The position numbers and the translations under genes are program-made. The notes under the pieces are model-generated. The model was not told the DNA's origin. It ran no database searches and was given only the letters and a program-made list of their open reading frames with translations. Below are positions 12,005 to 53,880 of a stretch of DNA of 64,000 bases, piece by piece (the first letter of the stretch is position 1; each line of letters begins with the position of its first letter). The DNA lies in assembly GCA_964420075.1 (NCBI GenBank), contig CAYQRE010000006.1, positions 74,793 to 138,792 of the forward strand, read 5' to 3'. This stretch comes from an uncultured Thermoanaerobaculia bacterium. GTDB lineage: Bacteria; Acidobacteriota; Thermoanaerobaculia; Multivoradales; SZUA-115.

Positions 12005-14164
<2,160 letters not shown>

Positions 14165-14261: not shown

Positions 14262-15494
14262 TCAAGGCCCGGGCACTGGATAGGGAGTGCCGAGCAAGAC
14301 CCAGTCGGGCACGCAGTAGACCGTCTCGCTTAGTCGTTGGACGGCGGATCCACGGTAGACGACGACGCCGCCGCGATACTTCTCGCCTAAGAGCCCGCGG
14401 GCCCGCTCGATGCGTCTGGCGTCCCGTTCCTGGACCGTCGCCCGCGACTTGAGCTCGCAAGCCACGATGCCACCATCCTCCCCTTCCAAGAGAAGGTTGA
14501 TCTCCAGGCCGCCGGCTGTGCGCAGGTAGCTGGCGTTGAAGCGGACCCCCAGGCTCCACAACGTGGTCAGGATCTGGGCCGTGATCAGGTTCTCGTACTG
14601 CTCGCCACTCAGCCCGGACACCTGCCCGGAGAGTGCTCGCTGCACCCCGGCATCGACCCAGATCAGCTTGGGTGCCTTGATCAACCGAGCACCGGCGTTG
14701 GTGGACCAGGGAGGCAGCCGCAGGCTCTGGTACGAGAGCTCCAGATAGCGCAGGTAGCGCCTGACGCTGGTCACCGGCAGCGAGGCGTCGCGCGCCAGGT
14801 CGGCAAGGTCCCGCTGCAGATGGGACTGCTGGTAGGAGTCGAGCCAGGGCAGCCGTTCTGCGGGAGGGTACTCGAGCTGGGGGGGCATGCCCCCCAGCGG
14901 GTGAGATGGTCCACGCAAGCCCCGGCGGCCCCAGCCTCGGGACCCACGACACCACTCGTCAGTGGCGAAGGCATCTCGCCGAAGCTGCCAGGAGCCAGGA
15001 GCCGGGCGAGGACTGGAGGCACCAGAGGACCTGCCGCGAAGAAGGGCGCCAGCTCCGCGACGGTCAGTGGCCAAAGCTCCTGGAGGAAGACCCTACCGGC
15101 GAGCGTCTCCCGGACCTTCTCGAGCAGCAGGATGCGGGATGAGCCGAGGAGCGCCGGATCTACCGTCCTCGCCCAGCCGTCCTCGCCCAGCCGTCCTCGC
15201 CCAGCCTTCCGCCGGAACGCCGCGTCGCCGGTCGCTCTCCCCAGGCGAGTCGAGGTTCAGATAGCGCAGCTCGCGGCCGTAGGTGGCACGGGCGAGAGTG
15301 GTCTTGCCCACCTGGCAGGCACCGGTGAGGACCGCCAGGCGCCGCGGACCCGTGGGCCGTGGCAGACGGGAGGCCAGGAAGCGCTCAAGCACCACAGAAA
15401 CCTGGCTAGTCGACCATGTAGTGGTCAAATTACCCTGCAAATCGACCAAGCAACGGTCGATCTGCAGGGTTGAGCTACCTCTCGGGACGCTCAT
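14262..15494 (-). pseudogene. Degraded AAA+ ATPase gene (AAA_14 + DUF4143 family), with frameshifts and an internal deletion
   Basis: N-terminal piece (ORF 15093..15494) carries the P-loop 'LAVLTGACQVGKTTLA…YLNLDSP'. A second frame carries 'RILLLEKVRETLAGRVFLQELWPLTVAEL'. A third frame (ORF 14262..15074) carries the DUF4143 body 'LPWLDSYQQSHLQRDLADL…LPPWSTNAGARLIKAPKLIWVDAGV'. The Walker-B segment between P-loop and 'LLLEK' is missing, and a 3×14-bp tandem repeat sits at the junction. Confidence 0.7.
15163..15204. repeat. Perfect tandem repeat, 3 × 14 bp (CCGTCCTCGCCCAG) inside the DUF4143 pseudogene
   Basis: Read directly from the sequence, with a partial fourth copy. A 14-bp unit shifts the reading frame per copy. 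Confidence 0.9.
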
Positions 15495-20481: not shown

Positions 20482-20615
20482 CGAGCCCGGGACGATAGCA
20501 CGGCGTCGATGCTCGGCTTGCTGGCAGGACGCCTCGCCTCGAAATGTCAATGTAACATGGGTCAACAGGGAACGTGGACCGGGTCTTGCTCGTAGGAGTC
20601 GCCAGGAGGCAAGCC

Positions 20616-23600
20616 GTGAGAAGTCTTGCAGCCGGGGCACACCATTGGTGGACCACGTCTCGCCGCGCCGTCGCGCTGCTGCTCCCCATCGCGGCCGTGA
20701 CCTGCGGGGCGCCGGTCGAACCGGCCGGGATCACGCTGCAGCGGCTCGAACGAGGCTCGGTCGCCGCCGTCGCGGGCCTGGAGGCCGGTGACGTGCTTCT
20801 CGCCTGGGCGAGGCATGACGAGGCGGGCGTCGACGGCCCGGCCACGCCCCTCGTCGCGGCTCGCGAGGTCGCCTCGGTGCTGCTGGCGGAGCTGCCGCGA
20901 CACGCCATCGTCCTCTTGGGAGAACGCCAGGGACGCGCCGCGAGGTGGCTGCTCCCCGCCGGCGGCTCGTGGCGCGAAGGGGCGATCGAGGTCCGCGCCC
21001 GCCCCGCCGCCAGCGCCGACAAGGCCACCACCGACAATGCCCCGACCGACGAAGCCACGAGCGACGGCCCTACGGGCAGCCTGGTCGAGGCCCTGCTCGC
21101 TGCCCGGGCGCACCGCGACCACGGTGACCTCGACCAGGCCGCTGCGGCGCTCACCGCGGCCCTGGCCACGCCGGCGAACCAGCCGACGGTGCCACAGCGA
21201 CTGGTGGCGGCGGCGCTCGCCAGCGAGCTCGCCGCCGTGGAGCTCGAGCGCGGCGGGCTCGCCGCGGGCCGCCGGGCCGCCGACACCGCCAGCCGCGTCT
21301 TCAGCGAGCTCGCGCCTCGCAGCCTCGACCTCGCCGAGGTCCTCACCCTCCAGGCCCGCCTCGCCCGGCGCCAGGGCGAAACGGCGGTGGCCGGCGAAGC
21401 CATCGAGCGGGCCGTCGCTCTCGCTGCGGCAGCTGGGCGAGAGAGCACCACCTGGGGGCGAGCCCTGGCGACGGCCAGCGGCCTGCGCCGGCTGCTGGGC
21501 TCACCCGCGGAGGCGGCGAGCGCGGGTCGCCAGGCGGCGGTCGTCCTCGAGCACCTGGCGCCCCGTTCCCGTGACCTCGCGGACGCCCTCCACCGCCAGG
21601 GAATCATTGCTGTCGATGACAACCGTCTCGACGAGGGCGAACAGCTGTTCCGGCGTGCCGCAGCGCTCGCCCAGGCCGAGTGGCCGGACGGACCCGAGAT
21701 GGCCCGCGCCTTCCACAACCTCGGTCTGATCGCCCTGCAGCGCAACGACGCCGATGTCGCTCAGCTGCAGCTCGCCCGCTCGGCGCGCCTGTGGCGACGC
21801 CTGGCACCGCGCTCGATCGACCTCGCCGTCAATCTCAACGCTCTAGCGACGGTGAAGATGGACCTCGGCGACTACCCCGGCGCCGAACGGGCGCTGCACG
21901 AATCGCTCGCCATCTATCGCGCCGTCTCGCCCAAGCACCGGCTGATCGTGCAGACCCTGCAGAACCTCGCGATGGCCACCCGCGACGGCCGGGGGGACCT
22001 GGTGGCAGCCGAGACCTACCTGCGCGAGGCCTTGATGCTCGCCGGCGAGCAGGAGCCCAACAGCCTGCTCTACGCCACCACCCTCAGCCATCTCGGTGAG
22101 CTGGTCGCCCGCCGCGGTGACCTCGGCCGCGCCCTGGTGATCCAGCGCCAGGCCCTGGCGATGGGCCAGCGGATCAGCGAGCGTGATCCCTTCCTGGTCG
22201 ACCTGCTGACCAACCTCGCCGAGACCGAGCGGCAGAGCGGCCAGCTCGCAGCCTGGGCTGAGCATGCCTGCGCCGCCATCGACATCCTCGACGAACGCTT
22301 CGACCACCTCGGCGGCACCGCCAGCCAACAAGCGCTCTTCGCCTCGCAGACGAACGGCGCCTACCGCTCTTGCGTCGCGGCCCTCGCCACTCTCGGGCGG
22401 GCCGAGGCGGCCTTCTCGGCCCTCGAACGGGGCCGGGCCCGGTCGCTGCTCTCTCTGCTCGCCACCCGTCGGCTGACCAATCGCGATCTGCCGCCGGCGA
22501 TCAGCCGCGAGCGCAAGCGATTGGCGACCGCCTACGATGCCACCCAGGACCGGCTGGCCGTCCTCGGGGCGGGCGAAGAGAGCACCGCCGAGGCCCTGCG
22601 AGCTCGCCTCAAGGAGCTGTGGCGCGCCCAGGAGGAGATCTCGGCCACGCTGCGGGACGCCCTGCCGCCGCCGACCTTGGCGGACTCGGCCAGGCCGCTC
22701 GACACCAGCGGCGCGCTTGCCGTCCTCGACCCCGGGACGCTCCTCCTGGCCTTCAGCGTCGGACGGGACGCCTCGTGGGTGCTCGCGCTCTCTCCCGGCC
22801 AGCGCCCCCTGGCGCGCCGCCTGGAGATCGGTGAGCGGGAGCTGCGCCAACGCGTGCGGGAGCTGCGCCAGGGCCTCGAAGACCCCAGCGCGGACCCCGT
22901 GGCCCTCGACCGCCAGGGCCAGGAGCTCTACGCGCTCTTGCTGGCGCCGATCGAGCCGCAGCTCGCCTCTGCCGAGCGCCTGCTGGTCTCCCCGGATGGA
23001 CCGCTCCACAGCCTCCCCTTCGCCGTGCTCGGCCCGCGGTCGGCCCCGCTGGTGTCCCGCTTGCCCATCCATACCGTGCTCTCGGCCTCGGTCTACGCGC
23101 AGCTGCGCCAGGGTCGCGGGGGGACCACGGCGGATCGCCGTGATCAGCTGATCGCCTTCGGCGACCCCAGCTACCGCGCGCCGCGCGGGACGGCTGGCGA
23201 TGCGGAGCCGGTGCTGCGCCTCGCCCTACCGCTCGAGCTGGCGCTCCAGCGCGGCCTGCGCCTGACCGCCCTGCCCGGCAGCCGGCGGGAGGTCGCGGCC
23301 ATCGCCCAGCTGGTCCCCGACGCCAAGGTCTTCTTCGGCAGCGAGGCCAGCGAGGCGCGGGCCCGCAGCGTGGCGCCGCAGGCCCGCTGGCTCCACTTCG
23401 CCTGTCACGCGCTGCTCGACGAGCGACTGCCCCTCAACTCCTCCCTGGCCCTGGCCCAGCCCGACCGCCTGCGCCCGGGGGAGGACAACGGTCTGCTGCA
23501 GGCCTGGGAGATCTTCGCCGGCCTGCAGCTCGACGCCGACCTCGTCACCCTCTCGGCCTGTAACACCGGTCTGGGGCAGGAGGTCTCGGGGGAGGGCTTG

Positions 23601-23834
23601 ATCGGCCTCAGCCGCGCGTTCCAGTATGCCGGGGCGAGGTCCGTCCTGGCCTCCTTGTGGTCGGTCTCCGACCGTGCGACGGCGCGCCTGATGCCCATCT
23701 TCTACCGCCGGCTGCTCGCCGGCGCCGCCAAGGACGAGGCCCTGCGCGAGGCACAGCTGGCGGTCGCGGCGGACCCCGAGACGCGCCATCCATTCCATTG
23801 GGCCGGCTTCGAGCTGCTCGGAGACCGGCGGTAG
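20616..23834 (+). CDS. Lipoprotein with PDZ-like domain, TPR repeats and C-terminal CHAT (caspase-like) protease domain
   Basis: GTG start with AGGAGG RBS 6 nt upstream. N-terminal 'LLLPIAAVTCG' lipobox, then a PDZ-like 'ITLQRLERGSVAAVAGLEAGDVLLAW'. Many TPR-like helical repeats. CHAT His/Cys dyad 'WLHFACHALLD…LVTLSACNTG'. Confidence 0.8.
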   Translation: MRSLAAGAHHWWTTSRRAVALLLPIAAVTCGAPVEPAGITLQRLERGSVAAVAGLEAGDVLLAWARHDEAGVDGPATPLVAAREVASVLLAELPRHAIVLLGERQGRAARWLLPAGGSWREGAIEVRARPAASADKATTDNAPTDEATSDGPTGSLVEALLAARAHRDHGDLDQAAAALTAALATPANQPTVPQRLVAAALASELAAVELERGGLAAGRRAADTASRVFSELAPRSLDLAEVLTLQARLARRQGETAVAGEAIERAVALAAAAGRESTTWGRALATASGLRRLLGSPAEAASAGRQAAVVLEHLAPRSRDLADALHRQGIIAVDDNRLDEGEQLFRRAAALAQAEWPDGPEMARAFHNLGLIALQRNDADVAQLQLARSARLWRRLAPRSIDLAVNLNALATVKMDLGDYPGAERALHESLAIYRAVSPKHRLIVQTLQNLAMATRDGRGDLVAAETYLREALMLAGEQEPNSLLYATTLSHLGELVARRGDLGRALVIQRQALAMGQRISERDPFLVDLLTNLAETERQSGQLAAWAEHACAAIDILDERFDHLGGTASQQALFASQTNGAYRSCVAALATLGRAEAAFSALERGRARSLLSLLATRRLTNRDLPPAISRERKRLATAYDATQDRLAVLGAGEESTAEALRARLKELWRAQEEISATLRDALPPPTLADSARPLDTSGALAVLDPGTLLLAFSVGRDASWVLALSPGQRPLARRLEIGERELRQRVRELRQGLEDPSADPVALDRQGQELYALLLAPIEPQLASAERLLVSPDGPLHSLPFAVLGPRSAPLVSRLPIHTVLSASVYAQLRQGRGGTTADRRDQLIAFGDPSYRAPRGTAGDAEPVLRLALPLELALQRGLRLTALPGSRREVAAIAQLVPDAKVFFGSEASEARARSVAPQARWLHFACHALLDERLPLNSSLALAQPDRLRPGEDNGLLQAWEIFAGLQLDADLVTLSACNTGLGQEVSGEGLIGLSRAFQYAGARSVLASLWSVSDRATARLMPIFYRRLLAGAAKDEALREAQLAVAADPETRHPFHWAGFELLGDRR

Positions 23835-23851
23835 CTGGCGGGAGGTGCACC

Positions 23852-26800
23852 TTGTCGCGACCCTGGAGCAGCCACCTTCGCCGCGCGCTCCCCGGCCTTG
23901 TCGCCGTGCTCCTCGCCATCGTCGCCGGGCGCGGTATCGGCGAGCGAGAGCGGGCCCTGGAAGCCGCTGCGTCGGCTCCTCGCCTGGGGCTCCTCGTCGA
24001 GTCCTGCCGGCCGCTGTCGGCGATCGCCGAGGTCGGGATCGCCGCCGGCGACCGCCTCCTCTCCTGGCAGGAGGAGGGCCACCCCGCCGCGACGCATCCG
24101 CTCGGCACGCCCTTCGACTGGTGGGCGCTCGCCATCGAGGTCCTCCCCCGCACGGCCGTCGTCCTCACCGGCGAACGGCACGGCAAGCCGCAGAGCTGGC
24201 CGCTCGCCGCCGGCCTGGAGCTCGCCGTGGACGATGCGGTCCTCAGCCCGTCCCTGCCCACCGTCCTCGCTGCCCTCGACCGCCAGGCTCGCGCCGCCTT
24301 GGGGGACCGCAACCAGGCGCAGGCCGAGCAGGCCTGGACGCTGGCGGCCGAGGTCGCGAGCGAGCGCGGGCAGCCCCGCCTCGGCGCCTGGCTGCTCGCC
24401 GGAGGGGCCGAGCTGGCGGCGCGCCAGCGCAACGGGCCGGCGGCAGACGCCCTCTATGCAGCGGCGGCCGCGGCCCTTGCCGCCCAGCAGGACGCGGCGA
24501 CGGCGGCGCTGTTACGCCGCTGGGCACGCGCGCTCTTCCAACAAGGTGACCTCAGCCGGGCCCTGAGCACCGCAGAACAGTCGATCACGGCGGCCGAGCG
24601 ACGGGCCTCGCCGGGCCTGGACGAGGCCGAAGGCCGGCTCGCGGCCGGCTACTACCTCAACAAGCAAAGCCGGATCCCCGCCGCCGAAGAGCAGTACCGG
24701 GCCGCCCTCGCGACCTTCGAAAGCCTCGCCCCGGACTCGGCCGGGCGGCTGCTCACGCTCTCCCGGCTCGCCGGCCTGGCGCTGCGCCGAGGAGACCTCG
24801 CGGCCGCCAAGGCCACCCTGGCGCAGGCCAAACCGGCCCTGCCGAGGCTCGCTCCCGGTTCGCCTGTCGCCTCGGCCCTGTTCACCAACCTTGGAGTGGT
24901 GGCGGACTACAGCAGCGACTTCCCCCAGGCCGAGGCCTTCGCTCGGCGGTCGATCGCCATCGACGAGCGCATCGACCCGCAGGGGACCGAGGTCGTCTCG
25001 GGGCTGCTCAACCTCTCGGTGCTGACCCAGCTCAAAGGAGATCTGGGCGAGACCGAGGCGGTGCTGCGGCGGGCCCTGGCGATCCTCGAGCGGCGCGGCA
25101 CCCAGGAGATGTTGCAGGCCCTGGTGCTCAACAACCTGGGGATGCTGAGCAAGGAGCTGGGGGACATCGACGAGGCCGGCCGCTGCTTCCAGCGGGCGGC
25201 CGATCTGCTGCAGGTGCTGGCCCCGGATAGCCCCGAGAGGGCCTTGATGCAGAGCAACCTCGGGGTGATCGCCCTGCGGCGGGATGACTTCGAAGGCGCC
25301 TTCCAGGCCTTCCGCACCGCCGCCGACGACGTCGCGAGGCAAGACCTGCGGGGGCCCGTGGCAAGTCAGCCGCTCATCCACCTGAGCCTCCTCGAGCTGC
25401 GCCGTGGCGAAGACCTCGGGGCTGCCGAGCGCTACCTCGCGAGGGCCGAGGCCATCCACTTCGAGGGCCAGAGCCCGCAGGACCGCGAGCGCCTGCTCGG
25501 CAACGAGATCCGCGCCGAGATCGCCTTGCGGCGCGGCGAGGTGGCCCGGGCGCGCCAGGCGCTCACCGATGCCCTGCGCTTCACCCGCAAGGCCTTCCCG
25601 GGGACCACCAACGAGGCGACGATCCTCGCTCAGACGGCGCGGCTCGAGCGCGATCATGGCAATCCGCACCGCGCCGCCGAGCTCTACTGCGAGGCGACCC
25701 GCGTGCTCGACCACCAGCGCACCCGCCTCGCCGACAGCGACACCCAGCGCCTGCTGTTCAGCGCCACCTACGCCGAGATTTACCAGGACTGTGCCGAGGC
25801 CCTGCTGGCGATCGGCGAGCCCGAGGCGGCCTTTCAAGCCGTCGAACGCGGGCGGGCTCGGCGCTTCTTGAGCCTGCTGCGCGAGCGCGACCTGCGCTTC
25901 GCCGACCTGCCGCCGGAGCTCCTCGCCGAGCGCCAGCGCCTCGACCAGCTCTTCGACCTCACACAGCGCAGCCTCCTCGGCCTGCCCGCCGGCAGCCCGG
26001 AGGCAGCGTCGACGATCGAGGAGCTGCGCGACCTCGAGCGGCAGCGCGAGGTGATCGCCCAGCGCGTCCGTGCCGCCTCGCCCCGCCTCGCCGCGCTCGA
26101 AGACCCCACACCGCTCGACGCCGTCGGTGCCCGCCAGGCCCTCGACCCCGGCACTCTGCTCCTGAGCTTCGTCGTCGGCAAGGAGGCGACGCTGCTCTTC
26201 GTGGTCGCCGGGCCCGGGAGCGGAGGGGCCGCGGCCACCAACCCGGCTGGCCTCGACGCCTACCGCCTGCCCGTCGGCGCGGCGGCGCTCAACGACAGCG
26301 CTCGCCACCTGCGCCAGCTGGCCGAGGACCCCGCCTCCTCGACCGCCGAGCTCGACCCCTTGGCGAGCGAGCTCTACGACCAGCTCCTGAAGCCCGCCGA
26401 GGCACGGATCGCGGCTGCCGACCGCCTGTTGATCTCCGCCGACGGCCCCTTGGCTGGCCTGCCGTTCGCCGTGCTCCGTCACAACGGCCAGTACCTCGCT
26501 CTGAGCAAGCCTCTGCACCGCGCCGCCTCGGCCACCGTCTACGCCGAGGTGCTGCGGCAGCGGGCGGCCCCCAGCGCGGCGCCGCTCGCCGCCTTCGGCG
26601 ACCCCAACTACAGCGGCCTGCGCCACTCGACCCTGGCGCAACAAGACCCGACCCTCACCCGTGCCGCCGCCAACGGCCTCCGTCTCGACCCCTTGCCCGG
26701 TACCCGCAGCGAGGTGGAGGGCATCGCAGCCCTGTTCCCCAACGCCGAGGTCTTCCTGGGCTCGGCCGCTACCGAGGAGGAGGCCCGGCGTGCCTCGCCC

Positions 26801-27256
26801 ACCTCACGGATCATCCACTTCGCCTGCCACGCCGTGCTCGACGAGCGCCTGCCCCTCAACTCGGCGCTGGTCCTCAGCCAGCCCGCGGGCAACACCAGGA
26901 GCGAGAACAACGGTCTGCTCCAGGCCTGGGAGATCTTCGAGAGCCTGCGTCTCGACGCCGACCTGGTGACCCTCTCGGCGTGCAACAGCGGCCTCGGCAG
27001 GGAGCTCAGCGGCGAGGGGATGATCGGCCTCACCCGCGCCTTCCAGTTCGCCGGCGCGCGCACCGTGCTCGCCTCGCTGTGGGCCGTCTCCGACCGCTCG
27101 ACGGCCAAGCTGATGCCCCGCTTCTACGCCCGCCTGCGCGACGGACTGCCGAAGGACGCGGCGCTGCGCGAGGCGCAGCGGGCGCTCGCCGCCGAGCCCG
27201 CTACCGCCCATCCCTTCCACTGGGCGGCCTTCGAGCTGGTGGGGGACTGGCGCTAG
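23852..27256 (+). CDS. Second PDZ–TPR–CHAT protein (tandem paralog)
   Basis: TTG start 18 nt after the stop of the first gene, with GGAGG 7 nt upstream. Same architecture (PDZ-like 'VGIAAGDRLLSW', TPRs, CHAT 'IIHFACHAVLD…LVTLSACNSG'). C-terminal ~250 aa nearly colinear with gene 1. Confidence 0.78.
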   Translation: MSRPWSSHLRRALPGLVAVLLAIVAGRGIGERERALEAAASAPRLGLLVESCRPLSAIAEVGIAAGDRLLSWQEEGHPAATHPLGTPFDWWALAIEVLPRTAVVLTGERHGKPQSWPLAAGLELAVDDAVLSPSLPTVLAALDRQARAALGDRNQAQAEQAWTLAAEVASERGQPRLGAWLLAGGAELAARQRNGPAADALYAAAAAALAAQQDAATAALLRRWARALFQQGDLSRALSTAEQSITAAERRASPGLDEAEGRLAAGYYLNKQSRIPAAEEQYRAALATFESLAPDSAGRLLTLSRLAGLALRRGDLAAAKATLAQAKPALPRLAPGSPVASALFTNLGVVADYSSDFPQAEAFARRSIAIDERIDPQGTEVVSGLLNLSVLTQLKGDLGETEAVLRRALAILERRGTQEMLQALVLNNLGMLSKELGDIDEAGRCFQRAADLLQVLAPDSPERALMQSNLGVIALRRDDFEGAFQAFRTAADDVARQDLRGPVASQPLIHLSLLELRRGEDLGAAERYLARAEAIHFEGQSPQDRERLLGNEIRAEIALRRGEVARARQALTDALRFTRKAFPGTTNEATILAQTARLERDHGNPHRAAELYCEATRVLDHQRTRLADSDTQRLLFSATYAEIYQDCAEALLAIGEPEAAFQAVERGRARRFLSLLRERDLRFADLPPELLAERQRLDQLFDLTQRSLLGLPAGSPEAASTIEELRDLERQREVIAQRVRAASPRLAALEDPTPLDAVGARQALDPGTLLLSFVVGKEATLLFVVAGPGSGGAAATNPAGLDAYRLPVGAAALNDSARHLRQLAEDPASSTAELDPLASELYDQLLKPAEARIAAADRLLISADGPLAGLPFAVLRHNGQYLALSKPLHRAASATVYAEVLRQRAAPSAAPLAAFGDPNYSGLRHSTLAQQDPTLTRAAANGLRLDPLPGTRSEVEGIAALFPNAEVFLGSAATEEEARRASPTSRIIHFACHAVLDERLPLNSALVLSQPAGNTRSENNGLLQAWEIFESLRLDADLVTLSACNSGLGRELSGEGMIGLTRAFQFAGARTVLASLWAVSDRSTAKLMPRFYARLRDGLPKDAALREAQRALAAEPATAHPFHWAAFELVGDWR

Positions 27257-29199
27257 CGCACTGGCGCCCGGCGCGCCCGCAGGCGCTCGATGCCCTGCTG
27301 CGCCGCGGCCGCCAGCGCCACCCACACCAGGGGCTCGATCATCATGCGGAAGCGGTTGTTCTCGCCGTACTCGCCGAGGTTGGCGACGACGGCCACGTAG
27401 AGCACGTTGAACAGGATGAAGAGCAAGGTCGAGTGCGCCGGCTCGCGGGGTTGGCGTAGGGCCCGCCAGGCCGCCGCCGGCAGGAGGGCGAGCACCAGGC
27501 CGAGCCAGAGCCACGACACCCGGCCCAGAAGGTCACGGGTGGGCAGCCAGCGCGAGCGGTGGGAGTGCGTCCCTGGCCACGAAGCGTCGGGAGCACCGTA
27601 GACGAAGCGGCTGTAGAGACGCTCCCAGCCGGCGATCGCCTGGCGCTTGACCCGGAAGGTCGGGTGCTCGGCCGGCGGCGCGAGGAAGATCAGCCCCGCC
27701 CGCAGGACGGCGCGAAGATAGAGGCGAGGGTGGTGCCGGATCACCCGCCAGGCGTCGCGCTCGTACTCCTGCATCACGCGAGCCATCAGCCAGTGGTTCA
27801 GGTTGGGGCCGCCGTCGCGGCGGACGATCCGGCCCGTGGCCCCTTGCCTCTCCAGCAAGGACCGCAGCTGCTCGCTGCCACTGGCGACGGCCGGCAGCCG
27901 GATCGCCGGCTCGAGCTGGAAGCCCAGCCAGCGGACCGCGAGCTGGCGCGAGTCCGGCCCCAGCCCCACGTCGACCGGTGCCGCGGTAGCGGCGTAGCGG
28001 AAGCTCAGCAGGTTGAGCGGCCGGTCGAGCGCTCCCGCCGGCAGGTCGAGCCGCGGCTGGGAGACACCGGCGGGGACTCCCAGACGCGCTACCTCGTGCC
28101 CGTTCACCCGCACCTCCACCCGCTGGGGCGGCGCTCCGGGGTACTCGAACGGCGCCCAACGCAGGGCGAGCGTATGCGCCGCGGCAGAGGGGCCCGGGAG
28201 CACGAACACCGAGACCGGCCCTCTCGACCACAGGGACGGGCCCTCCACCGAGCCCTCGACCTCTTTGCTCCAACCGAGCGGCAGGAAGGCCCAGGCGTTG
28301 CGGTCCGCGAGATCGAGCCCGCCGACCTCCCGTAGGCCCCGCTCCGGCAGGCCCAGTGGATAGCGATCGATCGCCTGGTTGACCGGAAAGAGGGCGAACG
28401 GCGACAGCTCCCCCGCCTCGGCCTCGCGCCACCGCTCCTCGGGGGGCAACAGCTCGGTCGAGATCCGGTAGAGGTTGAGGCCCACGAGGCTCGAGCCGCC
28501 GAACGGGCCGAAGAGCACGGCGTTCTTGAGGTAGAGCCCACCGACGAGGACGACGGGCAGAGCGAGCACCAGGGCTTGGCGCCGGCGCGGCCGGCGTAGC
28601 CCGGCCACCACCACCACGGCCGCCACCACCCACAGCAGGTGAAAGAGGCTCCGGGTCAGGGCCACCGCGGCGATCAGCAGCGCCGTCGCCACCAGCGCGC
28701 CGCGAGCGGCATCCGCGAAGAAGCGGTGCGCCACCGCGGCGAGGGCCAGCAGGAGCACCGCCGTCGGGTAGGTGTACATCGTGTACGTCTCGTAGAGCAG
28801 GCAGGCGGGCCCGACGATGAAGAGCAGCGTCACGAACGCCGCAGCGATGGCGTTGACCCCCAACCGCCGCTGCAGGTGGAACATCAGCCAGGTCATGGCG
28901 AGGCCGAAGGACCAGTAGACGGCCGACATCGCCAGCGAAAAGTCCTCGCCGCCGAGCTTGACCACCAGGCCCACCAGGGCATTGAACAGCGGCGGCTGCG
29001 AGTGCAGCAAGAAGAGGCTCGGGAGCAGGTCCGAGGCCAGCAGGTCGCGGTCCAGCAGGTGCATGGCCGGCAGCTCCTGTGAGCTGCGCACGCCGAGGGC
29101 ATAGACGAGCGCCCGGGTGAAGGCGAAAGCGAGGAAGAGGATCGCGAGGAAGTGCCTGTCGCTCCGCGCGGAACGCAGCGGCCCTCTCGAGGGGCTCAT
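27253..29199 (-). CDS. Hypothetical polytopic membrane protein with large C-terminal extracytoplasmic domain
   Basis: 648-aa ORF with about 9 N-terminal hydrophobic helices, then a soluble domain. Convergent with the CHAT gene and overlapping it by 4 nt. No recognised catalytic motif. Confidence 0.55.
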   Translation of the reverse strand: MSPSRGPLRSARSDRHFLAILFLAFAFTRALVYALGVRSSQELPAMHLLDRDLLASDLLPSLFLLHSQPPLFNALVGLVVKLGGEDFSLAMSAVYWSFGLAMTWLMFHLQRRLGVNAIAAAFVTLLFIVGPACLLYETYTMYTYPTAVLLLALAAVAHRFFADAARGALVATALLIAAVALTRSLFHLLWVVAAVVVVAGLRRPRRRQALVLALPVVLVGGLYLKNAVLFGPFGGSSLVGLNLYRISTELLPPEERWREAEAGELSPFALFPVNQAIDRYPLGLPERGLREVGGLDLADRNAWAFLPLGWSKEVEGSVEGPSLWSRGPVSVFVLPGPSAAAHTLALRWAPFEYPGAPPQRVEVRVNGHEVARLGVPAGVSQPRLDLPAGALDRPLNLLSFRYAATAAPVDVGLGPDSRQLAVRWLGFQLEPAIRLPAVASGSEQLRSLLERQGATGRIVRRDGGPNLNHWLMARVMQEYERDAWRVIRHHPRLYLRAVLRAGLIFLAPPAEHPTFRVKRQAIAGWERLYSRFVYGAPDASWPGTHSHRSRWLPTRDLLGRVSWLWLGLVLALLPAAAWRALRQPREPAHSTLLFILFNVLYVAVVANLGEYGENNRFRMMIEPLVWVALAAAAQQGIERLRARRAPVR

Positions 29200-29267
29200 T
29201 TTTCGATTTTACTCGACGTCGTAATTCTAGTCAGGCAGGACGCGCCGCAGCCGGCGCCACGCTTCGC

Positions 29268-30851
29268 TCAGCGCAGCAGCGCCGGCAAGCGCGCTTCGAC
29301 CTCGGCGCGCGAGAGCCCGAGGAGATCGGCGTGGGCGAGCAGGGGGGCGAAGTCCACTGGGTAAAGATTGCCGCGCGCCGGATCGGCGAGGCCGGCGACG
29401 TTGCGGGGCGCGATCGCCGCCGCGACCCACTCTTCGAAGGCAGCGAGAGCAGCCGGCAGCGGGGCAGCGCCCAGCACGGTGAGCCGGTCGTGGGCGGCGT
29501 GAGGCCAGCTGGCCACGAGCTCGTCCGTCGCTCCCAGGAAGCCCCGCCAAGCCCAATCATCGGCCTCGGGATGGAGGCGCCGCAGGGCCTCACCGAAGCT
29601 CGCCGCCGCGAAGTAGAGCTGGGCGTAGGCGGCGAATGCCCGGAAACTACGGCGGGCGCGGTAGGCGCCGGCGATCAGGCGGTCGAGGTGGTCGGCCTCG
29701 CAGGCGAGCTGCTGCTGGTAGCGCGCGAGGGCGGCCGCGGAGGGCAGACCGCGCTCGAAGAGCCGGCCGATCCGCTCGACGCCGGCGAGGCTCCAGGCGA
29801 TCCCGGTCGAGAAGAGGGGATCGCTGAAGGCGTAGGTGCTCGGCAACAGCAGCCAGTGCTCCCCCACGGCGCGGCACAGGCGGTGCTGCACCCGCGGCAC
29901 GAAGCCCAGAGGCCGGACGGCCTCGGCGGCCTCGAATTGGGCAGCGAGCGAGGGGTAGCGGGCGAGGAGCCGGGCCCAGAGCTCTGCAGCCGCCCCGCCT
30001 TCGGCGAGGAGCCCCGCCGCCGCGGGCTCGTCGAGGTCGAGCAGGAAACCAGCGCTCGTCACCCCGTCGTCGAAGGGGAGCACGTACATCCAACCGAGGT
30101 CGGTCAGGTGGTGGTTGGCCGCCCAATGCTCGGGGTAAGGAGGCGCGGGCAGCGGCGCTCCCTCCGCCGTTGCCACCTCGGCGAAGGGGTGCACACCAGT
30201 GAAGTGGCCGTAGACCAGCGCCGAGCGAACGGCCGAGGGCTCCGGCGCGACGATCCCCGGCACGACGGAGGCGTACAGGCCACGGCCACCGCTGGCATCG
30301 AGGACGAAGTCGGCGCTGGCGGCGAAGTCGCGGCCGTCCTGCCGGCCCTGGATCTGCACGCCCTGGGGACGGCGGCACACGGCCGTCACCTCCACCCGCT
30401 CGTGGACCTCCACGCCTTCCTCCGCGGCGCGGGCGACGAAAAAGGCGTCGACGTCCTCGCGCAGCCAGTGGCTGTCGGCCACCGCGTCGCTCGGGCTCGC
30501 CGCCACCAGCAGCCGGGCCAGCGGCGCGTCGGCGAACTTCCGGCCCGGCTGGTGGCCGTAGAAGCTGAAGCCGCGTTTGAGGCCACGGCGCAGCGCCGGA
30601 TAGGCCGCCAGCCAGCGGCCGTAGGCGGCCAGGGCGCGGAGATCGGGGAGGTCGTAGCGCGCGGCGAGGGCTTCGAGGGCGATCGCCGCGAGCGGCGTCG
30701 ACGACTCGCCGAGGGCGAAGCGCGGGTGCTGGCCGCGCTCGAGCAGGAGGACGCGGTACTCCAGCCGGTGGAGCACGCGGGCAGCGAGAGTGCCGGCGAA
30801 GCCGGAGCCGACCACGGCGACGGTCGCGCTCACGCTCCGCACTCCGCACAC
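29268..30851 (-). CDS. FAD-dependent oxidoreductase, tryptophan-halogenase-like family
   Basis: Rossmann motif 'VAVVGSGFAGTLAAR' at the N-terminus. 'GWMYVLPF' resembles the halogenase WxWxIP block, and 'FSDPLFSTGI' resembles the FxDPxxSxG motif. GTG start. Overlaps the radical SAM gene by 22 nt. Confidence 0.6.
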   Translation of the reverse strand: MCGVRSVSATVAVVGSGFAGTLAARVLHRLEYRVLLLERGQHPRFALGESSTPLAAIALEALAARYDLPDLRALAAYGRWLAAYPALRRGLKRGFSFYGHQPGRKFADAPLARLLVAASPSDAVADSHWLREDVDAFFVARAAEEGVEVHERVEVTAVCRRPQGVQIQGRQDGRDFAASADFVLDASGGRGLYASVVPGIVAPEPSAVRSALVYGHFTGVHPFAEVATAEGAPLPAPPYPEHWAANHHLTDLGWMYVLPFDDGVTSAGFLLDLDEPAAAGLLAEGGAAAELWARLLARYPSLAAQFEAAEAVRPLGFVPRVQHRLCRAVGEHWLLLPSTYAFSDPLFSTGIAWSLAGVERIGRLFERGLPSAAALARYQQQLACEADHLDRLIAGAYRARRSFRAFAAYAQLYFAAASFGEALRRLHPEADDWAWRGFLGATDELVASWPHAAHDRLTVLGAAPLPAALAAFEEWVAAAIAPRNVAGLADPARGNLYPVDFAPLLAHADLLGLSRAEVEARLPALLR

Positions 30852-31783
30852 GAGACGGCCGGCTCCCCTGCCCCCGCGAGGTTGATCCGTGCCAGCCGCT
30901 TACGCCGAGCCGCGAAGCAGCACGGGCAGGCGGCGAGGCGTTCGAGGTCCCAGAGGTCGGCCGTCACCACACCGCCGCCGAGCGCGAGGGCGCCGTCGAG
31001 GGCCGCCTCCAGCTGAGCGAGGTTCGGCGGCACGAACTGCCCACGCGCAGCCAGCGCGTCGAGGCCGCCACCACCGCGCACGGGGATGAGGCTCACCACG
31101 CCGACCCCCTGTGCAAAGGCGAGCTCCGCCGAGCGCACCGCCCAGGCCACCGCCTCGGCGGGCGGCACGAACGGCGCCCCCACCAGCACGAAGGCCCGCA
31201 TCCCCACCCCCGCACCGCGCAAGGTACGCGCAGCGGCCGCGAAGTCCCCGAGCGTCATCCCCTTACCGGAGCGGGCGAGCGCCTCGGGATGCGCCGTCTC
31301 AAGCCCCATCGCCACCTCCAGCCGCCCCGCGAGGCGCTCCGCGAAGGCGAGGCAGCGCCGGCCGACCAGGCGGGGATGGCTCTCGACCACCACGCCGAGA
31401 AAGGGCCGCGCGAGCTCGGCGAGCGCCGCGTCGTCCGCCTCCGGCACCGCCCGGTGGTCGAAGAAGTTGCTGGCGTTGTAGAGCTTGAGGAGAGTTCCCG
31501 CCCGTTCCCTGGGCGGCACCCCGGCGAGCGCGCTCGCGAGTTGCGCCGGCAAGGCCCCAGGCGGCGTGGGGCCGTCGAGGGTGTGCTGCCAGAGGTCACA
31601 GAACACGCAGGAGAAGGGGCATTCGGCACCGGTGAGAAAGACCGTGAGCGCCGCCACCTGCCCTCCTCCCGGCCGGCGCTCCTCCTCGCGCAGCACGCCC
31701 TGCGCCCGCCAATTATCGAGCGCGGGCTTGGGCGGGCGGTGCATGGGCCAGAGGATAGCCCCACAACGGAGCGAGCGGTCCAC
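30830..31783 (-). CDS. Radical SAM domain protein (about 300 aa, Cys-rich C-terminus)
   Basis: CxxxCxxC cluster 'TGAECPFSCVFCD' about 55 aa from the N-terminus. C-terminal 'CPCCF…SCAEC' suggests a zinc ribbon or auxiliary cluster. Start ambiguous (GTG at 31783 or ATG at 31744). Confidence 0.65.
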   Translation of the reverse strand: MDRSLRCGAILWPMHRPPKPALDNWRAQGVLREEERRPGGGQVAALTVFLTGAECPFSCVFCDLWQHTLDGPTPPGALPAQLASALAGVPPRERAGTLLKLYNASNFFDHRAVPEADDAALAELARPFLGVVVESHPRLVGRRCLAFAERLAGRLEVAMGLETAHPEALARSGKGMTLGDFAAAARTLRGAGVGMRAFVLVGAPFVPPAEAVAWAVRSAELAFAQGVGVVSLIPVRGGGGLDALAARGQFVPPNLAQLEAALDGALALGGGVVTADLWDLERLAACPCCFAARRKRLARINLAGAGEPAVSCAECGA

Positions 31784-32175
31784 CTGCGCGGACGCACTCG
31801 CCCGCAGGAACGCCGATGAGGTGATGAGATCGGGGCCTTCTACGAGGGGACGCCTTCGACGGTCGAGGGCTGGCGGTCAGCGCCAGGCCCGAGGTGGCGC
31901 CTTGGCCGGGGCGATGCGGAAGGGCGGTATGAAAGAGATGCCGCTCTTGGCCCTCGACGACGAGCAGGCGCGCTACTTCCGCGGGGCCGCGGAAGAGCAG
32001 ATCGTGGTCAGCCGCCCCGGCCAGCGGGCAGGCACATCGGTTTCGGCTCCGAGGACGCCTGGTTCGACTGCCGGCTGGACTACGAACCGCACTTCACCAG
32101 CGCGGCGAGAGCGTCCGCGCCAGGTAGCGCGCAAAGCGACGAGTGAGGCTGGAGAACCGGCCGCCGGAGGCCCCC

Positions 32176-33531
32176 TCACGCCACCTGGCAGTAGAGGTCG
32201 AGGAAGTGGCGGCGGTAGGTCTCCGCATCGTGGCCGAGGCGGCTCATGCGGGCCTCGTCCGAGGTCGCACCGTCCTGGAAGCGCCGCTTCTCGTAGACCG
32301 GCATCTCGAGCCCGGTGACGGCGGCGACGCCGCGGCGGACCACCTCGCCCTTCAACGCATAGAGCTGGGCGTGCGAACCGCCGGTCAGCGCCGCGAAGGG
32401 GATGGCCTCGGCCACCGCGATCACCGCCGGCCGGGTGTAGGGCGAGAAGCCCACGAAGCCATGGCGGGCGGCCGGAGCGTAGGTGCGCACGGTGCCCCGC
32501 GAGAGGCCGCCGCTGTAGGTCAACGAGTGCTTGATGCAGTCCACTCCCCAGCCCTCGTGGTAGAGCATTCGGTTGTTGACCACGCTGCGAATCGTCAGCT
32601 CAGCGTTCTCCTCGATCGGGTAGTCCTTGAGGTTCTCGTCGCCGCCGTCGCCGTCGACCAAGAGCTGCCAGTCCGGGTAGCGCTGGCGCAGCGCCGCCAG
32701 CAGCGCCAGGTTGACCGCCGCGCATTCGACGTCGAGGGGCTTGTAGTCCTCGATCACCTCGACTGCCGCCAGCGGGTCGACGGCAGAAGCCGGCACCTCG
32801 ATCACCTCGTGGAAGAGCCCGAGGTCCAGCCGCGAGAGGAAGTCCCGTGCCTGTGCCGCGTCGGCGCCGCCCTCGACGGAGAGCGTGAAGGCCTTGAGCC
32901 GCGCCGGGCTCTGGCCGAGATCGAGCAGAGCGCGGTAGAGGCAGAGGAAGACGGCGCCGCTGTCGATGCCGCCGGAGAGCAGGACGCCGATCGGCGCCCC
33001 GGGGTCGACGCTGCCGAGCCAGCTGCGCACTTCGTCCATCAGGGCGCCGACATACTGCCGGCCGATGAGATCGAGGTCGGGCGGCAGCACGGCCCGCTGG
33101 GGATCGAAGAAGCGGCGGTAGACGGGGTTCGGGTCCGGGCAGCCGACGAGCCGCAGCTCGGTCACGTGGTGCGCCGGCACCATCCGCGTGTAGGAGGGAT
33201 GGAACTGCGCCGCCTTGCCCTCGCCGGCGAGGAAGTCGCGGATCTCATCGATGCGCTCCGCCACCACCAGCATCGGCCCCGCGACCTCCTTGGCCAGGAA
33301 GTAGCGCAAGGGACGGTCGAGGCTGCGAGCGAGGTAGACCTTCTCGCCCCCGCGGGCCACCAGCGCGAAGGAGCCCTGCAGGCCGAGCACCGCGGCTGGC
33401 TCGCCGCTCACCAGCCGGCGGCGGGCCTCGGCGAGATCGACGCCCGGCAGCCGCTGGCGGGCCGGGTCGGTGAGGTCGACAAGGCGGGCGATGGTGCGCT
33501 GGTGGGGCGGCGGGGCGAGGGTGGTTTCCAT
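32176..33531 (-). CDS. Asparagine-synthetase-B-family amidotransferase homolog lacking the N-terminal glutaminase nucleophile region
   Basis: Internal ATG 'METTLAPP' with GGAGG 4 nt upstream. PP-loop 'GVLLSGGIDSGAV', 'LLVDGDGGDE' and AsnB-like 'GSFALVARGGEKVYLARSLDRPLRYF'. About 100 N-terminal residues of canonical AsnB, including Cys1, are absent. Confidence 0.7.
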   Translation of the reverse strand: METTLAPPPHQRTIARLVDLTDPARQRLPGVDLAEARRRLVSGEPAAVLGLQGSFALVARGGEKVYLARSLDRPLRYFLAKEVAGPMLVVAERIDEIRDFLAGEGKAAQFHPSYTRMVPAHHVTELRLVGCPDPNPVYRRFFDPQRAVLPPDLDLIGRQYVGALMDEVRSWLGSVDPGAPIGVLLSGGIDSGAVFLCLYRALLDLGQSPARLKAFTLSVEGGADAAQARDFLSRLDLGLFHEVIEVPASAVDPLAAVEVIEDYKPLDVECAAVNLALLAALRQRYPDWQLLVDGDGGDENLKDYPIEENAELTIRSVVNNRMLYHEGWGVDCIKHSLTYSGGLSRGTVRTYAPAARHGFVGFSPYTRPAVIAVAEAIPFAALTGGSHAQLYALKGEVVRRGVAAVTGLEMPVYEKRRFQDGATSDEARMSRLGHDAETYRRHFLDLYCQVA

Positions 33532-33700
33532 GGGGCCTCCTGGCGGGTCGCGTCCGCACCCGAGCTTACCGCGGCCGGCGCCGTGGCGGCTTTCGCCGCG
33601 GGATGACGCCAAGTCCTCCGGGGGGACTCTGCCGCCCGCCGGTTCGGCGGCGCGGCCGGCCTCGGCCCGATCCACCGCACCCGCCCCGGAGGACTGCCCC

Positions 33701-49737: not shown

Positions 49738-50553
49738 GTGGCGTTCCTCCACTTCGGGTCCCGCCGGCTGGCCTACGAGCTCCACGGCTCCTCAGGCCCC
49801 CTCGTCGCCCTGGTGATGGGCCTGGGCATGCCGGGCGCCGCCTGGGCACCGCAGATCTCCGCCCTCGGGCCGTCCTACCGGCTGCTGACCTTCGACCACC
49901 CCGGGATCCACGCCTCAGACGCCCTCCCCGGCCTGCCTTCGGTACCCGAGTTGGCCGCCGACCTCGGCACCCTCCTCGCACACCTCGGCGCGCGGACCGT
50001 CCACCTCGTCGGTATCTCGATGGGGAGTCAGATCGCTCTCGCGACGGCCCTCGCGGCGCCGGCGCGGGCTGCCTCGCTCACTCTGCTCTCGACCTGGAGC
50101 GGCCGCACGCTCTGGTTACCGACCCTCGCCAACCTGCGCTGGACGCCAGCCGTCGTCTTGCGAAGCGGTCCACCCCACTACCGGGCGCTCGCCCGCCAGC
50201 TCTTCTCGCGCCGCTTTCGGGCCTCGCTCGCCGAGGCCGAGGTCATCGCCCGCCTCAGCGCCGGCCTCGGCCCTCGGCCGTCGGCGCGCAACACCCTTGG
50301 GCAGTTCTGGTCACTCCTGCGCTACGACGCCGGCCGCCAGCTCGGGGCGCTTGCCGCCGTGCCCACGCTGGTGGTCCACGGTGGGGCTGACTGCTTGGTG
50401 CCCGTCTCGCGAGCCCGCGAGCTGGCACGACGCATCCCCGGCGCTCGCTTCGAGCTCGTGGCCGGCTGCGGGCACGGCTTGTCCATGGAAGCCGCGGCCG
50501 AGGTGAACCGCCTCTTGGCGGAGCACTTCGCCGCCGCCGGCGAGCTGCCCTAG
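49738..50553 (+). CDS. Alpha/beta-hydrolase fold protein
   Basis: Nucleophile elbow 'HLVGISMGSQIA' (GxSxG), C-terminal 'VVHGGADCLVP' and 'GCGHGLSME' (catalytic His region). Alternative-start (GTG) ORF. Confidence 0.7.
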   Translation: MAFLHFGSRRLAYELHGSSGPLVALVMGLGMPGAAWAPQISALGPSYRLLTFDHPGIHASDALPGLPSVPELAADLGTLLAHLGARTVHLVGISMGSQIALATALAAPARAASLTLLSTWSGRTLWLPTLANLRWTPAVVLRSGPPHYRALARQLFSRRFRASLAEAEVIARLSAGLGPRPSARNTLGQFWSLLRYDAGRQLGALAAVPTLVVHGGADCLVPVSRARELARRIPGARFELVAGCGHGLSMEAAAEVNRLLAEHFAAAGELP

Positions 50554-50738
50554 AGGCCGGGTGGGGCCTGGCGCAGCAACCACCAGACCCCGCAACCCAG
50601 CGCGACAAAGAAGGCCAGCACGGTCACGGCGGCCCACAGCGCGAAGCGCCGCCCCTTGGGGCCGACGGCAGCAAGGTAGGCCCCCACCGCGGCGAGCAGG
50701 GCGAAGAGCACGAAGGTAATCAGGGGCAACGTCATCAA
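50550..50738 (-). CDS. Small hydrophobic protein (2 TM, 62 aa)
   Basis: 'MMTLPLITFVLFALLAAVGAYLAAVGPKGRRFALWAAVTVLAFFVALGCGVWWLL' has a clean two-helix hydropathy. Overlaps the hydrolase stop by 4 nt on the opposite strand. Confidence 0.35.
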   Translation of the reverse strand: MMTLPLITFVLFALLAAVGAYLAAVGPKGRRFALWAAVTVLAFFVALGCGVWWLLRQAPPGL

Positions 50739-50906
50739 AGCCTCCCAGGAGGCCGAGCTGCGGGGCCGAAGAGGCCGGCTCGGCGAGCGTCCGATGGAGT
50801 GGACAGGACGCTTCTGGATGTCATGGCGAGAGTACTACGGCCGAGGCGGGGGGAGAGAACAGTGCGGAAGGCGGCGGCTGAGCTGAACGGGCGTTCTGCC
50901 CGGTGT

Positions 50907-50920
50907 TGGCAAGTTTGCCA
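50907..50920 (+). promoter_or_regulatory. Perfect inverted repeat TGGCAA-GT-TTGCCA, a candidate enhancer (UAS) for a σ54 activator
   Basis: Read directly from the sequence, about 125 bp upstream of the σ54-like −24/−12 element, inside a locally AT-richer intergenic island. Confidence 0.4.
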
Positions 50921-51038
50921 GAAGTTCACCACCAATGGGCATTTCTACCACCCAATTTTCCCAGATTCGGGTATGCTACCCGCCAACTTCTCCTGGTGCA
51001 GGCTGCTTGACGTCCCAGAAAAGGCAGCCTCGACGAGC

Positions 51039-51054
51039 TGGCATTTACGTTGCT
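51039..51054 (+). promoter_or_regulatory. Putative σ54 (RpoN) −24/−12 promoter, TGGCAT-N5-TTGCT
   Basis: Matches the consensus TGGCAC-N5-TTGCW with correct GG/GC spacing, about 185 nt upstream of the multiheme cytochrome start codon, in a 0.5-kb AT-rich non-coding region. Confidence 0.5.
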
Positions 51055-51239
51055 AGCAGAGACCCAAGAGAGACAACTTGGAACGCTCGTAGATGCAATG
51101 CACCCAAATTGCACTGACGAGAAGATGTGCGCTAGAATCCCAATCGAAATAGTAATTTCCAAAAGTTGGATTGTTGACTGATTAAGTTCAAAGTGGAGCT
51201 GATCGATGATCCAGGGAGCGACGGGGTGAGAGGGGCCGC

Positions 51240-53161: not shown

Positions 53162-53179
53162 CCTGGAGCGAGATCGGAC

Positions 53180-53767: not shown

Positions 53768-53805
53768 CCCGCCGCTTCCGCCTTCCGCCACCGCGCCTCG
53801 AGCAA

Positions 53806-53835: not shown

Positions 53836-53880
53836 ACGAGGCGCATCGGCGCGCCCACGACCGGCAGTGAGCCGGCACCT

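Follow-up and report, generated by a model that had tools for sequence, protein, structure and literature searches.

A tandem pair of PDZ-TPR-CHAT paralogs, probably extracytoplasmic, from a large and mostly acidobacterial family

What do two large, adjacent genes that end in a caspase-like CHAT domain do, and on which side of the membrane do their products work? The genes, here called A and B, lie on the forward strand of a 64,000-nucleotide stretch of DNA from an uncultured Thermoanaerobaculia bacterium (contig CAYQRE010000006.1); the window below means this whole stretch. Each protein consists of a signal-like N-terminus, a PDZ domain of the HtrA/RseP type, a long superhelix of tetratricopeptide repeats (TPR), a helical linker, and a CHAT domain with an invariant His/Cys dyad. 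Taken as one explanation, it is probable that A and B are extracytoplasmic (periplasmic or inner-membrane-tethered), ligand-gated cysteine proteases of a large, mostly Acidobacteriota family, and that they are old paralogs of each other. We infer the localization from N-terminal heuristics, from domain fusions in relatives, and from the precedent of the periplasmic protein DdvA, and all proposed activation steps are drawn by analogy. Work on caspase-like CHAT proteases has dealt almost exclusively with cytoplasmic ones (separase, Csx29, HetF), and DdvA, the single periplasmic example, comes without a demonstrated activity or signal.

The two open reading frames (ORFs), with their translations and the ribosome-binding sites (RBS) that serve them, are located as follows.
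20603-20608, + strand: RBS AGGAGG of gene A, 7 nt upstream of the GTG start
20616-23834, + strand: gene A, PDZ-TPR-CHAT protein of 1072 amino acids (aa), GTG start, TAG stop at 23832-23834
23835-23851, + strand: spacer of 17 nt between A and B, holding GGGAGG, the RBS of gene B
23852-27256, + strand: gene B, PDZ-TPR-CHAT protein of 1134 aa, TTG start, TAG stop at 27254-27256

Third-position G+C is 0.89 in both frames, the coding signature of a 73% G+C genome. The two genes are separate and complete. One gene split by a sequencing error is excluded because three independent Logan assemblies, in their public gene calls, contain the same two genes of 1072 and 1134 aa; each gene also has its full domain set, its RBS, and its stop. 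The sequence-only reading, made from the letters of the window, had given lengths of about 1070 and 1134 aa and a TTG start with its own RBS for the second gene, and both statements hold (GGGAGG lies 6 nt upstream of the TTG). The distance between the genes, given there as 18 nt, measures 17 nt. A and B are probably co-transcribed: only 17 nt separate them, B carries an RBS of its own, and the terminator scan found no terminator-like site in the spacer. The promoter and terminator scan as a whole returned nothing and is uninformative at 73% G+C. An exact copy of the A protein is found among the retrieved relatives (P0001). B differs from P0079, the representative of its 90%-identity cluster, at five residues (63, 77, 79, 95, and 339). 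Four of the five fall in the PDZ domain, a tiny sample which hints that strain-level variation may concentrate in the recognition domain of B.

The domains are placed along the two genes as listed here.
20616-20708, + strand: signal-like N-terminus of A, residues 1-31, with 3 Arg, the h-region AVALLLPIAAV, and then TCG
20721-21008, + strand: PDZ domain of A (HtrA/RseP type), residues 36-131, from the family profile and from an AlphaFold model with Foldseek
21018-22310, + strand: TPR array of A, residues ~135-565, Pfam TPR_12 at E 6.5e-23 in four stretches, with boundaries from the alignment to B
22911-23825, + strand: CHAT caspase-like domain of A, residues 766-1070, Pfam CHAT at E 1.8e-70, profile positions 2-289 of 289
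23406-23408, + strand: dyad His931 of A, motif HFACHA, invariant column, codon checked
23559-23561, + strand: dyad Cys982 of A, motif LSACNTG, invariant column, codon checked
23852-23932, + strand: signal peptide or uncleaved signal anchor of B, residues 1-27, with 3 Arg, the h-region LPGLVAVLLAIVAG, and no Cys
23987-24253, + strand: PDZ domain of B, residues 46-134, a member of family profile A1, from a local hidden Markov model (HMM) and the full-length model
24260-25891, + strand: TPR superhelix of B, residues ~137-680, Pfam TPR_12 at E 2.5e-23 in five stretches, with ~26 helices in the model
26357-27247, + strand: CHAT domain of B, residues 836-1132, Pfam CHAT at E 2.3e-70
26828-26830, + strand: dyad His993 of B, invariant column, codon checked
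26981-26983, + strand: dyad Cys1044 of B, invariant column, codon checked

The TPR arrays hold about 12 TPR_12-type repeats per protein, which in A are of the kinesin-light-chain-like type with 42 residues each. The CHAT domain (Pfam PF12770, caspase-hemoglobinase fold) is matched with 238.1 bits in A and 237.7 bits in B, against a cut-off of 24, over profile positions 2-289 of 289. The columns of the dyad His and Cys are invariant in all 50 sequences of the full-length family alignment, and the motifs HFAxH, LSAC.TG, and GEG..GL.RAF..AGA are also conserved across it. A profile of the family CHAT domains alone reaches Csx29 at E 6e-4 and aligns the dyad with ILCHGE (His) and LGACETD (Cys). This profile was necessary for the match: the full-length family profile against the PDB is swamped by TPR proteins, and a phmmer search of the PDB with the single CHAT domain of A gives no match. 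The CHAT-only profile did not reach DdvA by sequence at E <= 1. The order of signal, PDZ, TPR, and CHAT proposed earlier for both paralogs agrees with Pfam, the family profile, and the structural model, and the CHAT match and intact dyad are confirmed in both proteins.

An intact dyad raises the question of catalysis. It is conceivable that A and B are non-catalytic envelope scaffolds, like BamD, LpoA, or PilF/PilW, in which CHAT is a binding or dimerization module. There is weak NCBIfam likeness to the PilW and PorW/SprE TPR lipoproteins, far below the cut-offs, no substrate is known, and the authors of the DdvA structure call its CHAT active site incomplete, with no cleavage shown (PMC11506125). 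However, all 50 aligned sequences keep His and Cys although overall identity is 30-40%, the flanking motifs are conserved too, and CHAT is the best-conserved part of the A/B pair (59%). From this pattern, selection appears to act on catalysis, and we consider the scaffold explanation unlikely.

Is the PDZ domain, which the earlier reading called PDZ-like, a real one? In a single-sequence Pfam scan it fails: A gives a partial PDZ_6 match at E 0.016 (15.4 bits against a cut-off of 27), and B gives no PDZ match. It is recovered once the family is considered. About 75 retrieved relatives carry a 90-residue module directly after the N-terminal hydrophobic segment, with the consensus GVVVEEV..GSAA.KAGL..GDVLLSW.R...SPFDL..VE.EQAPRG.V.L.G.R.G...W...RP.L. 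The 58-sequence family profile A1 of this module matches the PDZ domains of DegQ, DegP, and RseP in the PDB at E 2e-15 to 1e-8. With DegS, whose PDZ domain it matches as well, the E-values range from 2e-15 to 1e-5, and the matches span positions 2-73 of the 87 in the profile. B is matched by a locally built HMM of the family N-terminus at E 8e-34, and several relatives carry precomputed PF17820, PF13180, or PF00595 matches. The C-terminal motif conserved in the family, G.WG[LI]..RP, reads differently in the two paralogs, as WREGAIEVRARP in A and as GLELAVDD... in B.

The predicted structures give the same fold. In the AlphaFold model, residues 36-131 of A have a predicted local distance difference test score (pLDDT) of 92.8, and the Foldseek matches listed for this model are PDZ domains or PDZ-containing proteins throughout. 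The best is the second PDZ domain of RseP (PDZ2, 3id4; E 4e-4, template modeling (TM) score 0.69), followed by MucP, DegS, DegP, GRASP, and CtpA. The full-length model of B has a PDZ-like beta/alpha pattern at residues 47-133 with a pLDDT of about 88-95. By profile and model, the PDZ domain is real and of the bacterial envelope-protease type; by analogy, it may bind peptides.

A begins with MRSLAAGAHHWWTTSRRAVALLLPIAAVTCGAP, which has three Arg, an 11-residue hydrophobic core, and then TCG; its hydropathy maximum over 10 residues is 2.81 and the charge of its n-region is +3/0. B begins with MSRPWSSHLRRALPGLVAVLLAIVAGRGIGERE, with 3 Arg, a 14-residue core stronger than that of A (hydropathy maximum over 10 residues 3.39), and no cysteine. 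The full-length model of B places a helix at residues 13-25 with low confidence. In the export heuristic used here, a Kyte-Doolittle mean of at least 2.0 over 10 residues counts as a hydrophobic core, and it was applied to 63 relatives with a complete N-terminus. A core is present in 57 of these and a net-positive n-region in 52, and the median distance from the end of the core to the PDZ domain is 14 residues. Among the neighbors in the window, the same heuristic makes the S46 peptidase look exported and the pyridoxal phosphate (PLP) decarboxylase not.

A lipoprotein-type lipobox is not borne out: the AVTC of A departs from the pattern [LVI][ASTVI][GAS]C at -3 (A) and at -1 (T), and the first 50 residues of B are free of Cys. 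Of the 63 relatives, 10 show a relaxed lipobox-like motif, [LVIAFM][ASTVIGL][GAS]C, and few of these 10 meet the strict rule. Twin-arginine (Tat) export was considered, since several relatives have RR in the n-region and the SRRAVAL stretch of A is weakly Tat-like, and was not adopted because the motif is inconsistent across the family. Two fusions bear on the topology. In P0172, the PDZ-TPR-CHAT part comes after an ECF-sigma-like domain (ECF, extracytoplasmic function) and a short hydrophobic segment; in P0086, it comes after a Ser/Thr kinase, a CHASE2 domain, and several transmembrane segments. The topology of both, inferred rather than computed, agrees with export. From the N-termini and their relatives, it is well supported, though short of proven, that A and B are exported or anchored outside the cytoplasm.

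The closest structural precedent is also periplasmic. The full-length AlphaFold model of B, built on a 50-sequence alignment, has a pLDDT of 87.7 and a predicted TM score of 0.84. Its best match in the PDB is DdvA (8rw5, E 1.2e-14; 8rot_A, TM 0.49), followed by human and yeast separases and Csx29, with the top matches at E 1e-14 to 1e-11. In overall fold, DdvA is the nearest to the model, with separase and Csx29 next. The sequence-only reading had framed TPR-CHAT proteins through Csx29, a cytoplasmic CRISPR partner. This frame is outdated now that the periplasmic DdvA has been solved and is the top structural match of B.

DdvA of Myxococcus xanthus is a single-pass anti-sigma factor with a periplasmic TPR-CHAT part of about 900 residues (PDB 8ROT/8RW5). 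Its authors propose signal-induced self-cleavage by CHAT, in trans within a dimer, as the site-1 step before RseP (PMC11506125). Like DdvA, A and B have, behind an N-terminal segment predicted to enter the membrane, a large and probably extracytoplasmic TPR scaffold and a CHAT domain with the His/Cys dyad. By analogy, they may also share the proposed signal-gated proteolysis in the envelope. They differ from DdvA in several respects. A and B lack the cytoplasmic zinc-binding anti-sigma domain and have only 12-18 residues before the hydrophobic core. Their PDZ domain is a further difference; in the DdvA paper, PDZ is named for RseP alone (PMC11506125). No sigma partner gene lies nearby, and their family is mostly from Acidobacteriota, whereas DdvA homologs are reported only in Myxococcota and one Comamonas (PMC11506125). 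Neither A nor B qualifies as a DdvA-like anti-sigma factor. Extracytoplasmic TPR-CHAT is already known from DdvA, and A and B are a PDZ-bearing, anti-sigma-free form of the TPR-CHAT protease.

Csx29 of the type III-E CRISPR Craspase (PDB 8D9F, 7X8A, 8EEY; PMC10028731) shares the TPR-CHAT architecture, is a structural match of the B model at E ~2e-13, and gives a weak partial NCBIfam match. Csx29, however, is a cytoplasmic protein of about 670-750 aa without a signal peptide or PDZ domain; it binds Cas7-11, and RNA activates it. The NCBIfam model of Csx29 (NF041237) scores 16.9 bits for A and 12.3 bits for B against a cut-off of 300, and the window is without CRISPR or cas genes, which together rule out that A and B are type III-E Csx29 proteins. 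Scans of the 64-kb window found no CRISPR array or CRISPR-like repeats, no Rfam family, and no PADLOC match, and its neighboring genes include no cas-like Pfam match, NTPase, or effector. The lack of a CRISPR context, proposed earlier, is thereby upheld, and a defense context is rejected on the same scans of the window.

Two of the structural matches of B, Csx29 and separase, work in the cytoplasm, and A and B could also be NLR-like or conflict-system TPR-CHAT proteases located there. Like Csx29 or the TPR-CHAT effectors of bacterial immunity, they would cut a toxin or a regulator upon an intracellular cue. The hydrophobic N-terminus would then be an inward-facing tether or the product of a wrong start. 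The family is rich in paralogs with divergent TPR, as are conflict-system sensors, and P0002 lies beside mobile-element and toxin-antitoxin genes. Against this, the window holds none of the conflict-system components listed above, signal-like N-termini stand directly before the PDZ domain in 57 of 63 relatives, and both the RBS positions and independent gene calls agree with the gene starts. The HtrA/RseP type of PDZ domain is a periplasmic one, and DdvA, the best structural match, is periplasmic as well. We consider a cytoplasmic role unlikely and prefer the extracytoplasmic protease.

Three other known systems help to describe such a protease. DegS, DegP, and RseP, PDZ-gated proteases of sigma-E signaling, have the same type of PDZ domain, with RseP PDZ2 as the best fold match, and the envelope location that is predicted for A and B. 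In them PDZ reads a peptide cue and gates a protease, a logic that A and B may share. Sigma/anti-sigma genes lie beside a subset of the loci of the present family. In contrast, the catalytic domain of A and B is a caspase-like Cys protease instead of a trypsin-like Ser protease or a zinc metalloprotease, and their PDZ domain is N-terminal, with about 700 residues of helical repeats before the protease. Separase also combines a helical-repeat scaffold with a CHAT-like catalytic domain (Foldseek E ~2e-14 to 1e-9). It is eukaryotic, nuclear or cytoplasmic, much larger, regulated by securin and cyclin-dependent kinase, and without PDZ or a signal peptide. HetF of Anabaena/Nostoc, a founding CHAT protease, carries out demonstrated site-specific regulatory proteolysis of PatU3 (PMC8406250, PMC9457339). 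It is set beside A and B by description, not by sequence or structure: the CHAT domain is common to them, and HetF differs in its architecture and in its role in cell division and heterocyst development.

How do A and B relate to each other? They are 41% identical overall, with a local alignment of 42% over 791 aa and another of 33% over the N-terminal 120 aa. Identity by domain is 35% for PDZ, 29% for TPR, 41% for the linker, and 59% for CHAT, so that pairwise alignment finds the TPR divergent and CHAT best conserved. By BLOSUM distance, A and B are each at least as close to P0082, P0085, and P0087 of other genomes as to each other. In a neighbor-joining tree, weak evidence without bootstrap, A and B fall into one clade on long terminal branches. 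On these distances and branches a recent tandem duplication is rejected, although the tree part of this evidence is weak. Because the recognition parts have diverged while the catalytic domain is kept, the alignment suggests two specificities for A and B. A DdvA-like heterodimer of A and B is possible by analogy, and less certain than two specificities.

Rather than being special, the pair is one instance of a large, mostly Acidobacteriota family, whose genes often occur in several copies and often in clusters. B has more than 230 relatives at E <= 1e-20. Many of them align over 96% of its length with 35-43% identity, and those that are named come nearly all from Thermoanaerobaculia or other Acidobacteriota metagenome-assembled genomes (MAGs). 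A is more divergent, and its best outside match is 38% identical. A scan of species-representative genomes gives at least 597 encoding loci, and the counts of domains and gene copies below cover the best 80 of these, among which the window's own genome does not figure. About 60 of the 80 have an ORF that matches both the PDZ and the CHAT profile. Cyanobacterial relatives are without PDZ. An exhaustive search with the PDZ profile gives many matches that cover the full profile and occur once, at the N-terminus, in proteins of 1000-1300 aa, and its total of 8950 at E <= 1e-10 includes ordinary multi-PDZ proteins. Existing annotation calls the relatives only "CHAT domain-containing protein" or "tetratricopeptide repeat protein", and a full-text literature search found no paper describing a PDZ-TPR-CHAT protein. 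Further domains stand before PDZ in some members: an alpha/beta hydrolase in P0133 and, after the signal, an unassigned domain of about 250 aa in P0080, P0081, P0091-P0093, and P0096.

Tandem pairs were surveyed as well. Two or three family genes lie within 10 kb at no fewer than 10 of the 80 loci, and several MAGs have family copies on two to four contigs. Paralog clustering is a recurrent habit of the family and is not peculiar to this window.
Multi-copy loci: L005, L008, L010, L014, L022, L029, L031, L032, L051, L057

P0002, the closest relative of A (locus L084, 204-9626 and 13789-19442), adjoins relaxase/MobC, toxin-antitoxin-like, and phage-like genes, which suggests that some family members travel on mobile elements. 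After P0002 come four same-strand genes without a Pfam family, one of them with a weak BNR repeat.

Do the neighbors of the family point to a substrate? All-against-all clustering of the ORFs from 81 loci found no neighbor family in more than 9 loci, and a fixed partner gene is rejected. Three groups of ECF sigma factors do recur among the neighbors. In one of these groups, at L011, L024, L031 (twice), L037, and L076, a zf-HC2 anti-sigma gene follows the sigma gene and lies immediately upstream of the protease gene. An ECF sigma gene, with or without anti-sigma, lies beside the family gene in about one fifth of the loci.
Order sigma, zf-HC2 anti-sigma, family gene: L011, L024, L025, L031, L037, L076
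Sigma just downstream of the family gene: L027, L032, L038
Other loci with an ECF sigma gene beside the family gene: L014, L015, L050, L051

Within 2.5 kb of a family gene there are 17 sigma ORFs (4.97 per 100 kb), versus 10 farther away (1.38 per 100 kb). This is an enrichment of about 3.6-fold (one-sided binomial p ~9e-4), counted with sigma HMMs that were built from genes found in these same flanks. At another locus (L088, 1-591), a CHASE2 gene lies directly upstream of the close relative P0087.

An S46 dipeptidyl-peptidase with a signal peptide is encoded at 12005-14164, 6 kb upstream of the pair, and a trypsin-like gene lies near P0087. A and B might work alongside such enzymes as secreted or periplasmic degradative (nutritional) peptidases, in which PDZ and TPR only hold substrates. 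Yet the characterized CHAT proteases, separase, and Csx29 are site-specific regulatory proteases and not bulk ones (PMC11506125, PMC9457339). A scaffold of more than 600 residues and the sigma, kinase, and CHASE2 fusions or neighbors point to signaling, and the S46 gene is not a conserved neighbor of the family. We regard a nutritional role as unlikely. Each of the three rivals is less well supported than the extracytoplasmic protease, and regulated proteolysis outside the cytoplasm, as suggested in the sequence-only reading, remains the best reading given the conserved signal-like N-termini, the HtrA/RseP-type PDZ, the fusions behind transmembrane segments, and DdvA.

By analogy with these systems, A and B would be exported by the Sec route and held in an inactive resting state, as are other TPR-CHAT proteases. 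The PDZ domain and the TPR groove would then bind a peptide or protein cue, for which a C-terminus that has become exposed and an envelope protein that is misplaced or foreign are candidates. Binding of the cue would align the dyad, and CHAT would cut its target or itself at a specific site. Where an ECF sigma gene adjoins, at about one fifth of the loci, the likely target would be the anti-sigma factor in a site-1 cut. Such a cut would parallel the action of DegS on RseA and the self-cleavage that has been proposed for DdvA.

Several points weigh against the extracytoplasmic protease. The basis for export consists of heuristics and family consistency. In B the N-terminus may be an uncleaved signal anchor, its cleavage being doubtful, because charged residues (Arg, Glu) directly follow the hydrophobic core. 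Catalysis by CHAT in A and B is putative, as an invariant dyad alone is no proof of activity. No member of the family has a known protease activity, substrate, or ligand, and the incomplete active site of DdvA, with no cleavage shown, counts here too. The relative placement of the domains in the B model is predicted only. A conserved operon partner is lacking, the most widely shared neighbor family occurring in 9 of 81 loci. The sigma enrichment is modest, and the sigma link is a lead and not a result because the HMMs come from the same flanks. HMMs from the relatives' ECF sigma genes find no ECF sigma gene in the 64-kb window. Without a sigma or anti-sigma gene nearby, A and B are left without a candidate substrate.

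A wider proposal would go beyond A and B. PDZ-TPR-CHAT proteins may be a widespread and previously unrecognized class of caspase-like sensor proteases in the periplasm, found mostly in Acidobacteriota. Their part would be the site-1 cut in ECF anti-sigma factors or in other signaling proteins of the envelope. They would thereby be a Cys-protease counterpart of DegS, with PDZ reading the cue, and tandem paralogs such as A and B would form DdvA-like heterodimers that complete active sites in trans. In this full form we hold the proposal to be doubtful.

What is defined here is a large, mostly Acidobacteriota family in which an HtrA/RseP-type PDZ domain stands ahead of a TPR-CHAT part that is predicted to be exported. 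If its members are active, a caspase-type protease can make the site-1 cut in pathways of envelope stress or sensing, and soluble, anti-sigma-free proteins become available for testing how periplasmic TPR-CHAT is switched on. The family is in this sense a tractable route into the switching-on of periplasmic caspase-like proteases. For the window, A and B can be annotated as two PDZ-TPR-CHAT paralogs, predicted to be exported, in place of generic "CHAT domain-containing proteins".

The remaining genes around the pair are of other kinds. Upstream and divergent from it are tmk, holB, a DsbA/SurA-like protein, the PLP decarboxylase, and the S46 peptidase, which is 62-70% identical to Thermoanaerobaculia proteins and thereby places the window most likely in this class. 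Downstream lies a convergent block.
27253-33702, - strand: 648-aa membrane protein, FAD (flavin adenine dinucleotide)/Trp-halogenase-like, radical-SAM-like, and asparagine synthase genes

The 648-aa protein is polytopic and has no Pfam match, and the 3' end of its gene overlaps the stop of B by 4 nt. The match of the radical-SAM-like protein is weak. The block might be a small biosynthetic or modification cluster.

On the minus strand at 14262-15494, an AAA_14 ATPase part (15093-15494) and a DUF4143 part (14262-15074) are encoded in two adjacent ORFs. AAA_14 and DUF4143 normally form one protein, and the split may reflect a frameshift or a pseudogene. A 14-bp tandem repeat, CCGTCCTCGCCCAG, is present in 3.4 copies at 15163-15210 inside this region. 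Toward the end of the window, at 50001-64000, G+C drops from about 0.72-0.74 to 0.66-0.69.

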